The notes beneath the pieces are model-generated. The model saw only the letters and a list, made by a program, of their open reading frames with translations. It was not told the origin of the DNA and searched no databases. From positions 80,662,001 to 80,726,000 of the forward strand of contig OZ024743.1 in the NCBI GenBank assembly GCA_964016885.1: a stretch of DNA of 64,000 nt, given 5' to 3'. The translations under genes and the position numbers were made by a program. Below are positions 7,143-55,744 of the stretch, piece by piece (the first letter of the stretch is position 1; each line of letters starts with the position of its first letter). This stretch comes from Eledone cirrhosa. Lineage: Eukaryota.

Positions 7143-7306
7143 TAGGAAAAGGGTCAGGACCCGACGGCTGAGCTCCAGCCGTTTTGACAGCTAGATCTGA
7201 ACTCAGATCTAGCTGTTAAAACGGCCGGAGCTCAGCCCTCGCGTCCTGACCCTTTTCCTTTTACCCACCCACTCTACTGCCCTAAGTGTCGAGTACTCTG
7301 GTGTTA
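7143..7306. mobile_element. Family A foldback element in (TA)n
   Basis: Inverted arms centred near 7200 plus a one-sided tail. Confidence 0.8.
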
Positions 7307-7830
7307 TATATATATATATATATATATATATATATATATATATATATATATATATATATATATATATATATATATATATACATATATACATATATGTATA
7401 TATATATGTATATATGTATATATATATATATATACATATATACATATATGTATATATATATATGTATATATGTATATATATATATATATACATATATGTA
7501 TATATATATATATATATATATGTATATATGTATATATATACATATATACATATATATATATGTATATATATATATATATATGTACATATATATATATATA
7601 TATACATATATATATATATATATGTATATATGTATATATATACATATATACATATATGTATATATATATATATACACATATATGTATATATATATATACA
7701 TATATGTATATATATATATATATATATATATATATATATATATATATATATATATATATATATATATATATATATATATACATATATATATATATATATA
7801 CATATATATATATATATATACATATATATA

Positions 7831-8640
7831 TAGGAACGAGTAGGACCCCGACGGCTGAGCTCAAGCCGTTTCGACGGCTAATTCTGGACTAAATGAAAAT
7901 TTTTATCCTGGTATTAGAATAGCCGAGCTTCTCAGGGGGTAATTCCATATATGGTAAAATTGATTGTCACAAGGAAAGTTTGTTGTTGAGACATAATAAT
8001 TCTATCATGGCAATTTGTGGAGGGAAGGGGTAGCTGAACCTGACAGTAGAAGAAAGAGGGGGAGGGGTGGAAGAAACCCAGTCGTGCGTTGATAGTGCCA
8101 ACTACGGCTGGGCAGGAGGTCAAAGAAGATACTAGGGGGGGGGGGTCGAAACAATAAGTAAAACAATATGGGGTAAAAATATAAAAAATACCGCGAGTGT
8201 TAAAACACAATTAAGTGAAAAGAAAAAAACAATTTCTGGTTACTATAACCTAAGGACAGCTATCAAGTCTCTCACTGGTACTGCTAGACTAAACACTGGT
8301 ACTGCTAGACTTCCACCCCCTCCCCCTCTTTCTTCTACTGACAGGTTCAGCTACCCCTTCCCTCCACAAATTGCCATGATAGCATTATTATGTCTCAACA
8401 ACAAACTTTCGACCAATCCTTGTGACAATCACTTTTACCATATATGGAATTACCCCCTGAGAAGCTCGGCTATTCAAATACCAGGATAAAAATTTTCATT
8501 TAGTCCAGAATTAGCCGTCGAAACGGCTTGAGCTCAGCCGTCGGGGTCCTACTCGTTCCTATTACCCACTCTACTTCCCTAAGTATTGAGTACTTTGGTG
8601 CGTTATGGTCCACCTGGTTCCTTACCACATTTCCTTCGTT
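7831..8640. mobile_element. Largest family A foldback element: ~240 bp inverted arms, ~240 bp spacer and ~80 nt tail, in (TA)n
   Basis: 7831-8072 is the reverse complement of ~8310-8561; TA runs flank both ends. Confidence 0.9.
8452..8547 (+). ncRNA. Type I hammerhead-like motif, family A (mirror copy 7845-7940 minus)
   Basis: Stem I ACCCC/GGGGT; core CTGAGAA; long stem II closed by CGGCTA/TAGCCG; GAAA; stem III ACGGCT/AGCCGT; GUC site at 8540-8542. Confidence 0.7.
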
Positions 8641-8667
8641 ATATATATATATATATATATATATATA

Positions 8668-9024
8668 TAATATAAGATCAAAAGATGGTTAAAGGAGTTC
8701 CATGTATTTTATTATGCGCATTTCAAAAACAAACATCATCATGCAATAATATTTGTGTTTTCATCAAATAAAACAGGAGAACATGATATGAAGGCTAAAA
8801 AACACTTGTGGATAGTGCAGTTTTAAATCAACATATCTGATGAAAACACAAATATTATTGCATGTTGATGTTTGTTTTTGAAATGCGCATAATAAAATAC
8901 ATGGAACTCCTTTAACCATCTTTTGATCTTATATTATGTATACTCCAGTCCTACAAACTGTAGAGTGCTTCTTATCCGATATCTGCATTGCTTTATTGTA
9001 CTACAATAAAACTCACCTCCTACA
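8668..9024. mobile_element. Family D foldback HHR element
   Basis: 8668-8770 is inverted against 8835-8936, plus a ~88 nt tail. Core CTGATGA at 8837 and GAAATGCGCATA at 8880-8891. Confidence 0.85.
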
Positions 9025-9066
9025 TTATATATATATATATATATATATATATATATATATATATCT

Positions 9067-51409: not shown

Positions 51410-51474
51410 TATTTCATTATACATATTTCAAGGACACCAAGTTAAATTATGGTGTGCTGTCATCAGATAAAATA
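51410..51474 (-). ncRNA. Type I hammerhead ribozyme
   Basis: TATTTTAT-CTGATGA-..ACACCA/TGGTGT..-GAAA-TATGTA-TA-ATGAAATA. Confidence 0.8.
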
Positions 51475-53249
51475 TAATATAGAGCAGTTTTATAAATAAA
51501 TATTGACATACCCTTAAAGAATGCAACCATATATATATATATATATATATATATATTCGTAATGTATGTTTGCCAGTGTGTGTGTGTGTGTGTGTGTGTG
51601 TGTGTGTGTGTGTGTGTGTGTGTGTGTGTGTGTGTGTGTGTTAGCGATACATTTGTCATGAACATTAAACTTTTCCCGGAACAAAATATCAACATTTCTG
51701 AAACAATAACCTACCTGTCCCCATAGTCACACACATTCACTCAGGTAGCAACACATGTACACAGGTACGACATACAGAAACCCCTGTGTGTAGCCACAGT
51801 TCAGAACGACTTGATTAATGTATATATCTATCTCTATACATACATATATATTTCTCTCTATATATACGCAAACAAGATATTAATACATACATTCAAATAT
51901 TTCTATCTACGCATATCTGTTCTCTCTACTTACTTAAGGACATATAAAAACATACATAGATTATATAGATTATATAAATACATATATATTTATATGTATA
52001 TATACCTATGCATTAATATATGTGTGTGTGTGTGTGTGTGTGTGTGTGTGTGTGTGTGTGTGTGTGTGTGTGTGTGTGTGTGTGTGTGTGTGTGTGTGTG
52101 TACGGAATGTGTTTGTCTGTATATAACTATATAAACCTGTAAGAAAACATGCAACATAATTGGAAAAAAATAATTTGATAATCGAATACGATTTAATGAG
52201 TATGAATTCCTCTCTCTCTCTCTCCTCTCTGCCTGTCTCTCTCTCGCTCTCTCTGTCTGTCTCTCGCTCGCGCTCTCTCTATCTCTCTTTCTAGATAGAT
52301 AGATAGATAGATAGAGAGATATATAGAAAAATAAATAAATAGATAAATAGATAGAATTATAGATAGATAGATAGATAGATAGATAGATAGATATATTTCT
52401 TTATTAGCCACAGATAGATAGATAGATAGATAGATAGATAGATAGATGACATTGATTGGGACTAGCTATATCACAATTCGCCATAGTATACAATAAGATA
52501 GTAGTGTAGATATATAAGCACGTATCAAACCCTCCGGCTTCAATGTCTTTCTAAAGGTAAGCCTGATCTTAGTCGCAGACCCACGAGGTAAGGTGTGCCT
52601 CGTGTCGTGGGAGAACCCAGGGAAATGTCCAGAATAACAATACACAAATTTATTTGGCATCAATAAATATATTTTATCAATCTCTACCTTGTTGTCGAGT
52701 ACACGATTTCCCTATATATATACATATATATGTTTATATATATATATATATATATATATATATATATATATATATATATATATATACACACACATATATA
52801 TAAACATATATATGTATATATATATATATATATATATATATATATACATATATATATATATATACATATATATATAAACATATATATATATATATATATA
52901 TGTACATATATATAAACATATACATGTATATATATATATATATATATATATATATATATATATATATATATATATATATACACATATATATAAACATATA
53001 TATATATATATACATATACATATATACCCACACACATATAAATATACATGTATATATATATATATATATATATATATATATATATATATATATATAAATA
53101 TATATATATATATATATATGTGTGTAGGAGGTGAGTTTTATTGTAGTACAATAAAGCAATGCAGATATCGGATAAGAAGCACTCTACAGTTTGTAGGACT
53201 GGAGTATACATAATATATAAGATCAAAAGATGGTTAAATGAATTCCATG

Positions 53250-53320
53250 TATTTTATTATGCGCATTTCAAAAACAAATATCATCATGCAATAACATTTG
53301 TGTTTTCATCAGATAAAATA
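53250..53320 (-). ncRNA. Type I hammerhead ribozyme, family D (element ~53123-53376)
   Basis: Intact CTGATGA / GAAATGCGCATA core with an 8-bp stem I. Confidence 0.88.
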
Positions 53321-53993
53321 GGAGGACATGATATGAAGGTTAAAAACACTTGTGAATAGTGCAGTTTTAAATAACATATATATATATATATATAATTTTA
53401 TATTCATCCCCATCATTTAACGTACGTTTTCTCTGCAGTGGTATGATGGGTCGTCAAAGACTTATTACGTACACGAGTTCCTCTACCAAAAGAACCGAGG
53501 GGTCCCTTACGTACCTGCACCCTGAACTACGTTGAATGTATCACCAACACATATCTATGTATATAGTATTTAACGATCTTGATGATGGCGACTATATATA
53601 AACTCTAAAATATCGAACACATTGGCGTGCAAATACATATACAAGCACACACAAGCATACATACATACATAATACACACACATATATATATATATATATA
53701 CATATATATATAGTTAATACATTAACAGAGAAAGCTAAAAGCGATACTCCGACCAATTTCCAACTCACTCAACAAACATGAGGAAATACCTGATTTTATT
53801 CCCAATTATACGTTTGGGGTGCTGACTATATTGTATTGTGTGGATAATCGGGTGTATTATTTTATACATATATATATACATATATATATATACATACATT
53901 ATATACATATATATATATATATATATACATATATATATATACATATACAAATATATACATACATATATATATATATATACATACATATATATA

Positions 53994-54172
53994 TAGGAAC
54001 AAGTAAGACCCCGACGGCTGAGCTCAAGCCGTTTCGACTGAATTAGCCGTCGAAACGGCTTGAGCTCAGCCGTCGGGGTCTTACTTGTTCCTATTACCCA
54101 CTCTACTACCCTAAGTATTGAGTACTTTGGTGCGTTATGGTCCACCTGGTTCCTTACCACTTTTCCTTCGTA
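53994..54172. mobile_element. Family A foldback element (another, deleted copy at 54550-54683)
   Basis: Inverted arms plus tail in (TA)n. Confidence 0.85.
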
Positions 54173-55744
54173 CATATATATATATATATATATATATATA
54201 TTACGGAATACTGTTGGCTTCTTGCTACAATAATTTCTATACTTTTCATTTATATATATATATATATATATATATATACTCATGATATATATATATATAA
54301 TACAGACACACACTTGTATAGATAATATATATACATACTATGAACAAAAATGTATGTTATATGAAATAAAAATATTTAAATAATACACACACACACATAT
54401 ATATACATGTTTCTATATATAATGTATATATATATATATAAATATATATATGTATACATACACACACATATATATATATATATACACACACATATATATA
54501 TATATATATATATATATATATATATATATATATATATATATATATATTTAACGAAGGAAGTGTGGTAAGGAACCAGGTGGATCATAACGCACCAGTGTAC
54601 TCATTACATAGGGTAGTAGTGTGGGTAATAGGAAAATGTTTAACCCCGACGGCAGAGCTCAAGCCAACGGCTTAATTTTCCTATATATATATATGTGTGT
54701 GTGTGTGTGTGTGTGTATGAGTGTGTGTGTTTACTAATGACTGTGTGTTTGTGTCTGTATTTATATAGTCTATATATATACATGTGTATAAGCTGAACTG
54801 GCAGATGAATCACACGCTGTACATTACGAACCAAATACGGTGGAGCTGTGACAATAACAAGCGTTTCTGGGATATGTCTCAATATGTTTATTTAAATTTC
54901 TCAATATATATATATATATATATATATGTATATGTGTATATATATATATATATATATATATATATATATATATATATATATATATATATATATATGTATA
55001 TGTATACATATATATATATATATATATATATATACACACACACACACACATATATCTAGTAATACAAATAGACGTGAAACGGCAGCGTCTATTTTAAAAA
55101 TATATGTATCTATCGTGCACACAAAACCTCACGTACATGTTTATATATTATATATATACATACGCACACACACGCATACATACATACATACATACATACA
55201 TACATACATACATACATACATACATACATACATACATACATACATATATATATATACATTAATTTTGCGAGGTTTTTTTATATGAAATCGTGTGTCGAAA
55301 CAAATATTGTTATAGTTGGGGAGGGTCATATTGTTGTAATAATATTGCCAGAATTAATAACAGAACACACTCACTGTAATAATAATAATTGTGAAGATTA
55401 AAATCCGAAGAGGGCTGGATAGAGATAATATATAAAATATATAAATCCGCAGAGCTAATATTTATTTGGTTATACTTTAATCTGATATATATATATATAT
55501 ATATATATAACAGACACAAGTATTTGTTTCTGAATTTGTGGACTGTAATAAATTACTCCTTTATATATATATATATATATATATATTATCGAGCCCTCTT
55601 TGGATTTTAGTTTTCAATTTTATTATTATTACTATTATTATTACTATTATTACTATATATATATATATATATATATATATATATATATATATATACATAT
55701 ATATATAAATGTTCACGGGTGTGTACGATAGTGTATAGAAGATT

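Follow-up and report, generated by a model that had tools for sequence, protein, structure and literature searches.

Asymmetric foldback repeats of Eledone cirrhosa as truncated insertions of a Hydra-like Penelope-like retroelement, probably formed from paired cDNAs

How does a repeat come to carry two inverted arms that end at different, but fixed, points? The question is raised by a 64,000 nucleotide stretch of the Eledone cirrhosa genome (contig OZ024743.1, positions 80,662,001 to 80,726,000 of the forward strand; below, the window, in whose own numbering coordinates are given), where eight copies of a repeat here called family A consist of a short and a long arm in inverted orientation. 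An original prediction, made from the letters alone, had placed these copies, described a short arm always stopping at TTCCTA and a long arm usually running about 80 nt further, and likened the arrangement to that of Penelope elements. As judged from sequence, the copies prove to be 5'-truncated insertions of a 3,531 bp Penelope-like retroelement (PLE), and they were probably formed by two complementary DNAs (cDNAs) primed 80 nt apart near the likely capped 5' end of an RNA, run off that end and then end-joined.

Positions within the element are numbered from the last A of the short-arm TTCCTA, which is 0 and is termed end A; end B lies at +80. All eight predicted coordinates fall, to within 1 nt, on the TA at the short-arm end, and in every one of the eight the short arm ends in TTCC-TA and is followed by (TA)n. 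The long arm reaches +76 to +81 in seven of the eight, the exception being the copy at 7143, near +40; the short arm of the 54683 copy is degenerate, with an internal deletion. The window holds these copies and a ninth, lone arm:

7143..7305, no strand assigned: mini foldback of an older subfamily, A arm left, tail of the right arm shortened near +40
7831..8642, no strand assigned: long foldback, with an inverted arm of 3' untranslated region (UTR) from end A, 7831 to about 8293, a hinge with a short local duplication, and a sense arm that begins at about -250 and passes A (8561) before reaching the tail end B (8641)
8562..8641, plus strand: 80-nt tail, equal to the first 80 nt of the next unit and spanning the putative reverse transcriptase (RT) start sites A to B
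9646..9827, no strand assigned: mini foldback, B left and A right, inner ends -58/-45
13554..13757, no strand assigned: mini foldback, B left and A right, an exception in that its arms carry differing subfamily markers
26764..26955, no strand assigned: mini foldback, B left and A right
49461..49655, no strand assigned: mini foldback, A left and B right
53994..54173, no strand assigned: mini foldback, A left and B right
54548..54684, no strand assigned: mini foldback, B left, right A arm internally deleted
5894..6025, minus strand: lone tail-bearing arm of an older subfamily, without a visible partner arm

The family is far more abundant than chance would allow: an exact search of the 3.0 Gb genome finds a 21-nt core 56,900 times and its reversed control not once, and genome-wide 28,783 arms end at A and 29,079 run on into the tail. 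The end rule was studied in 1.42 Mb of fetched sequence, most loci of which were chosen by pattern and came from one chromosome. Arm ends in this sample are not random, since A or B forms the end of 431 of the 452 arms, and at least three TA units follow 389 of those 431; the length of the TA run does not differ between A and B ends (p = 0.11). The two ends are also paired in a near-strict fashion. Among 179 head-to-head pairs, 160 combine A with B, two are A+A, one is B+B, and in the other 16 an end is odd or cut, so that A+B accounts for 160 of the 163 pairs made of A and B ends only (p ~1e-43); in 654 kb of unselected sequence the figure is 15 of 18. A further A+A pair scored by hand, at C1:13812402, proved to contain a mutated B arm. 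A single clear tail-plus-tail insertion was seen (L011/L012, G000:C4:268737515-268738300).

Were the site chosen independently for each arm, A+B would make up 50% of pairs; the observed rule would therefore need an asymmetric complex on one RNA. Both A and B present TAT in register with the nicked (TA)n strand, but so do the little-used positions +23 and +43, and thus pairing alone does not select A and B.

The identity of the parent element emerges from what lies beyond the arms. Among the first 30 loci to be fetched, L009 shows the tail leading straight into a frame for RT; in L023 and L030 a frame for the nuclease, followed by 3' UTR, ends at A. A protein search returned at least 142 near-identical matches, many within open frames of about 784 codons, and intact copies of the element exist in the genome. 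The natural unit, taken from a tandem array, is 3,531 bp long and consists of the 80-nt tail, a single 774-codon frame, a 1.2-kb 3' UTR and the terminal TTCCTA; three array units differ from one another by 0-1 nt across the 3,531 nt. It follows from this structure that end A is the 3' end of the unit and that the tail opens the following one. The autonomous partner of the foldbacks is accordingly an RT element, not a carrier of a DDE transposase, and the predicted likeness to Penelope is borne out by a tail that continues into a frame with RT and GIY-YIG-type parts. One insertion (L031-L033, G000:C1:437198045-437214409) joins an inverted B arm of 200 nt to an A arm of four whole units and a partial one, and the three of its units that were compared differ by 0-1 nt.

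The 774-codon open reading frame (ORF) carries YRDD, and its predicted structure (pLDDT 90.5) has telomerase RT (TERT) as top Foldseek matches, with a Z score of 14.0 in a further comparison. The best fold matches of the C-terminal domain are the GIY-YIG nucleases T4 EndoII, Hpy188I and I-TevI, all weak (E of 0.14 or more); an invariant Y, Y-x-G and R in 77 aligned sequences, together with a matching topology, fits that class. Sequence searches of Pfam and the PDB with the element protein gave no match. The motifs RWR, DKT, CNCPDRSIC, CNLC and CKH in the protein (P0001), with the nuclease at the C-terminus, fit the description of the Hydra clade. A partial tandem copy, or pseudo-long terminal repeat (pLTR), an inverted copy and a tail are all present. 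The element can thus be called Hydra-like, though membership of Hydra is not proven and the canonical hammerhead core is lacking: a scan for CTGANGA found none in the 3,531-bp unit. On its sequence it is a new family of Hydra-like PLEs.

If the outer ends are fixed, the inner ends might still have been expected to vary, as the original prediction of a variable hinge held. There were 128 short A+B pairs; both arms could be measured in 99, the other 29 being set aside, as were 14 more that had been fetched only through patterns at -59. The inner ends (n = 170) comprise 129 at -63 to -52, 33 shorter and eight beyond -63, and are thus bounded at -63 and not random. Likewise, both inner ends fall at about -44 to -62 in six of the eight window copies and at -36/-39 in the 54548-54684 copy; long arms are found only in the 7831-8642 copy, the other window arms extending no more than about 60 nt inward. 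The fold point does differ from copy to copy, but within a narrow zone in which it is mostly pinned. Hinge microhomology, proposed as a check, found no backing: the 53 joins without inserts overlap by 0 nt in 38% and 1 nt in 47% of cases, near the 54% and 35% of simulated blunt joins, and 46 of 99 joins contain small inserts. At three hinges on G000:C1 (near 4946900, 18731500 and 20838000), runs of 15-18 A or T follow an end at -59 to -62, which suggests RT slippage on UUU at the template end.

The relationship of the arms to each other shows no polarity. In the 99 short pairs the deeper arm is A in 37, B in 42 and neither in 20, and in long copies the split is 14 against 16; since B would always have to contain A if a single cDNA folded back, such folding is excluded by the finding that either arm may reach deeper. 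At the same time, the arms agree in subfamily in 70 of 71 pairs against an expected 0.26, and tend to be both short or both long (116/1/4/6, p = 3e-7), so that, as far as sequence can tell, they share one template lineage. The idea that arms usually derive from different RNAs, prompted by the copy at 13554, was rejected on this concordance. One locus (L301, G000:C1:86725750-86726550) holds two minis tail to tail over a TA run; its facing A arms share a private change, which the outer B arms, differing in subfamily, do not carry.

A mark at the hinge offers an indication of what the template end was. A query was made for copies in which each arm ends at -59 and 2-4 nt separate the two, the templated base being excluded; it returned 368 loci genome-wide, and 50 of these were counted by hand. 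C was present on 90 of their 100 cDNA ends and on both arms at 40 loci, in the forms C-A-G (26), C-C-A-G (7), C-A-A-G (2), C-G (2) and three others. As the template is never G at this position (0 of 119 long arms, 0 of 100 listed arms), the C is untemplated. The 20 marked loci that were fetched, with 21 joins, represent three subfamilies, and 20 of the joins score as A+B, the remaining one being B+A by eye. At -58, C occupied 15 of 100 ends, an imperfect control because it is dominated by the own sequence of a probable subfamily variant; at a minor stop, -63, eight of 46 loci were marked on both arms. RTs of the Moloney murine leukaemia virus (MMLV) type have been described as adding +C, +CAA or +CCA on m7G-capped RNA, with no strong preference for C on uncapped RNA (PMC6885630). 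Taken with this behaviour and with the promoter-like words described below, the mark suggests that the RNA had a capped 5' end at -59, with a minor one at -63.

The same region is predicted to encode both a ribozyme and a transcription start, best seen in the sense arm of the long foldback:

8446..8561, plus strand: predicted type I hammerhead, from sequence, fold and core conservation
8446 onwards, 8457-8463 and 8520-8523, plus strand: 5' side of stem I, first half of the core, and GAAA of the hammerhead
8542 and 8559, plus strand: predicted cleavage after 8542, and end of distal stem I at TTCC
8471..8504, plus strand: candidate promoter, a TATA-like word (8471-8478) and an initiator-like TTAGTC
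8502, plus strand: putative capped start, A at -59, inside hammerhead loop II

A-59 is preceded, at a distance of 29 nt, by the TATA-like word and itself falls within TTAGTC, which resembles an initiator. Promoters within pLTRs have been described elsewhere (PMC2377424, PMC3846280). The end of the unit folds unprompted into the three-way junction of a type I hammerhead with a U3-A8 core and predicted cleavage at -19, and the predicted distal stem I ends at TTCC, which agrees with the earlier placing of the short-arm end at the base of this stem. U3-A8 is a known variant of PLE hammerheads (PMC4209133). Core positions are invariant in 63-64 of 64 sequences, except position 7, where all four bases occur, and position 3 (U in 38, C in 24); the window hammerhead at 8446..8561 has the C3.A8 mismatch of its subfamily, most others having U3-A8. 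Counting against the predicted ribozyme, no more than 14 of 64 sequences have an open core in their minimum free energy structure, and no two-sided covariation was found in the hammerhead. Rfam gave no match in the window, and neither that search nor the scan for CTGANGA picked out anything in family A. The hammerhead is a predicted one, and its core is non-canonical. C3 stands against A8 in 24 of 63 distinct long arms, and the spread of such copies would mildly argue against a need for cleavage. A non-LTR retrozyme, defined as head-to-tail with a whole hammerhead per unit (10.64898/2026.07.22.740005, in the part available), was rejected, the minis being head-to-head with the 3' half of the ribozyme only.

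These observations can be assembled into a route that is probable overall. RNA polymerase II would start at A-59, or less often A-63, inside the upstream pLTR, and the RT-nuclease would nick both strands of a (TA)n target, each nicked TA strand pairing over 3 nt with UAU at the two RNA sites. One cDNA would be primed at A and one at B, close to the RNA 5' end, on one RNA or on sister RNAs of one locus held in an asymmetric, probably dimeric complex, and they would run off the capped end after about 59 and 139 nt. Their 3' ends would be trimmed by 0-15 nt and joined head to head by host end-joining. The two cDNAs of the original prediction thus gain backing from the A+B rule, the lack of polarity and the C on both arms; its variable truncation points do not, the hinge being mostly pinned at -59 with a minor site at -63. 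For the few long copies, the RT must pass the RNA 5' end, and the favoured step is a jump to the repeated -59..0 segment at the RNA 3' end, with a circle or a longer read-through RNA as alternatives. In a parallel case, a PLE protein of the lizard Anolis nicks and extends both strands in vitro, with two RNA start sites bounding the tail (PMC11167929).

A more ambitious extension, which we hold only tentatively, would make this paired strong-stop synthesis: a single complex would start a cDNA on each target strand, at two fixed sites close to the capped 5' end, and to continue each short cDNA would have to jump to the repeated -59 region at the RNA 3' end. The pLTR would then work like a true LTR, the promoter would split the hammerhead and thereby confine its formation to the 3' end, mini palindromes would be failed jumps, and tandem arrays repeated ones. 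If true, it could be a general Penelope mechanism, and a second family in the window shows the same asymmetry.

Several observations weigh against this account of two run-off cDNAs. Of the 452 arms, 94 were unpaired, one B+B and two A+A pairs break the rule, and most of the loci on which it stands were picked by pattern on one chromosome. Arms of mismatched subfamily occur at 13554-13757 in the window, at C1:6761882 and in one copy in L301. The clean double mark is confined to 368 copies; when all 12,121 arms stopping at -59 are considered, the preceding base among 100 listed is G in 46, C in 48 and A in 6, a count confounded by the partner arm. The zone -55 to -63 is also the 3' strand of a small hairpin predicted in loop II. 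As a sign of the jump, a cap scar was sought inside 119 + 100 long arms and none was found, the genome pattern used having caught mainly one subfamily. Of 16 two-armed insertions with a full unit, 14 continue for 181-1,962 nt past -63, one of the 16 running three units further, and the remaining two stop at -58 and +36; a plain capped template does not predict such read-past. Lastly, the strands showed no difference in start site in PMC11167929, which alone would give 50% A+B.

In one alternative, the two cDNAs were made on uncleaved tandem or circular RNA and stalled at an RNA structure or bound protein near -60, the C being ordinary terminal addition. The inner ends do overlap the hairpin strand, a continuous template would account for long copies and for array units that differ by 0-1 nt in 3,531, and a circular template has been proposed (PMC4209133, in the part available). 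This seems improbable, given that C marks 90 of 100 ends at -59 but 15 of 100 at -58, that MMLV RT shows no strong preference for C on uncapped RNA (PMC6885630), that just one of 16 long cDNAs halts on its second passage of the -59 site, and that copies with the C3.A8 core mismatch, 24 of 63 distinct long arms, have spread nonetheless. A proposal that minis form a self-propagating, short interspersed nuclear element (SINE)-like class, with their own short capped RNAs as templates, would modify the account of paired run-off cDNAs without replacing it. It draws on the correlation of arm lengths, the dominance of minis and the internal promoter downstream of the start known in Drosophila Penelope (PMC2377424), but is rather unlikely: the TATA-like word at -88 is absent from minis, and long arms also exist for each main mini subfamily.

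Self-priming, the reading offered in PMC3846280 as far as its available part goes, would have one cDNA or an antisense RNA fold back, with the second arm copying the first. The subfamily match in 70 of 71 pairs, and the fact that the two arms of a copy are often each other's closest match among all those fetched, are what it would produce. It would also oblige the tail arm to span everything that the short arm covers. In fact the short arm is the deeper of the two in 37 of the 79 short pairs that are not tied and in 14 of the 30 long pairs, on one occasion by four complete units. Several hinges lack a loop or a usable overlap, and one cDNA cannot bear a terminal mark on both arms, so that double-marked and reversed-polarity copies render it very improbable. 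Least credible, to a degree that makes it practically negligible, is a miniature inverted-repeat transposable element (MITE) or foldback transposon moved by a DDE transposase, or else a long palindrome shortened after insertion. Short inverted-repeat elements in TA targets look alike at first sight, but here the arms run on into an RT ORF and its 3' UTR, the terminal inverted repeats are unequal by rule, and the hinges are copy-specific with untemplated bases. Paired run-off cDNAs thus remain the probable origin of the foldbacks.

Other repeats share the window. An unrelated, second foldback family has a canonical CTGATGA...GAAA core (8662-9030, 11614-11901, 53123 to about 53480, and from 63978) and the same design, its outer ends falling at two points some 88 nt apart, represented by 12 and 11 arms of the fetched sequence; it offers a natural replicate for the count of the cap mark. 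Further CTGATGA...GAAA motifs at 13364, 37902, 42454 and 51466 may belong to other hammerhead-bearing repeat families. A 646-codon non-LTR retrotransposon RT frame occupies 14508-16448 on the minus strand, which we take from its motifs to be L1/Tx1-like, and a fragment at 9067-9510 (minus) presumably resembles the C-terminus of an RTE-type long interspersed nuclear element. A tRNA-like match barely above threshold at 60566-60623 (plus) is probably the head of a tRNA-derived SINE. Minisatellites lie at 45526-46948 (period 31), 40354-41321 (period 22/45) and 35269-35804 (period 45).

Comparison with described elements, within the available parts of the papers cited, places family A close to the Hydra clade, with which it shares a C-terminal GIY-YIG-type nuclease, RW(K/R), DKT, a CxCx5C linker, CxxC and CxH, (TA)n targets, a hammerhead near the 3' end and, in one family, an inverted 5'-truncated copy (PMC8557442). 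It differs in a unit of 3.5 kb where those are generally under 3 kb, in a U3-A8 or C3.A8 core where all those listed are CTGANGA (PMC8557442), in a hammerhead sequence unlike that of Hydra-1_Obim, and in its tens of thousands of mini palindromes. The inverted pLTR and tail are already known: a partial tandem, an inverted 5'-truncated head-to-head copy and a one-sided tail occur in Penelope, Naiad and rotifer PLEs (PMC8557442, PMC3846280, PMC2377424), though with tails of 30-40 nt rather than 80, and with self-priming or nuclease resolution as the published reading; in family A the pairing, once counted, is near-strict and the hinge is pinned and cap-marked. A literature search did not find the strict two-end rule or cap-marked hinges; older Penelope reviews, which were beyond its reach, may sketch two cDNAs. 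Poseidon of Anolis resembles family A in that both strands are nicked and extended, two internal RT start sites bound the tail near the pLTR-ORF junction, and ribozyme cleavage is dispensable in vitro; its start sites lie inside the ORF without homology to the target, whereas UAU stands at both sites here, and the part of that report covered gives no account of inverted arms, strand-to-site pairing or capped run-off (PMC11167929). Schistosoma PLE hammerheads share the U3-A8 core and have opposite-strand motif pairs 100-700 bp apart (PMC4209133), but in family A stem III is complete and the long loop II holds the putative start.

Minis of this kind are prone to being misfiled as MITEs, and the family's predicted ribozyme is missed by canonical searches. 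In L1 twin priming, two target-primed cDNAs are joined at their 3' ends, but only occasionally and with different parts of the RNA copied; here twin priming would be the rule, and both cDNAs would copy the same stretch. The strong-stop cDNA of LTR elements is likewise a short cDNA run off a capped 5' end, but family A has no tRNA primer, integrase or true LTR. The origin of the inverted repeats and one-sided tail of PLEs is an open question, for which the need of an in vitro system has been named (PMC8557442, in the part available). With family A, tens of thousands of natural products are at hand by which the models can be told apart: they speak strongly against self-priming, point to arms that are independent run-off cDNAs, and would fix with single-nucleotide precision where the RNA begins and where each of the two RT start sites lies.

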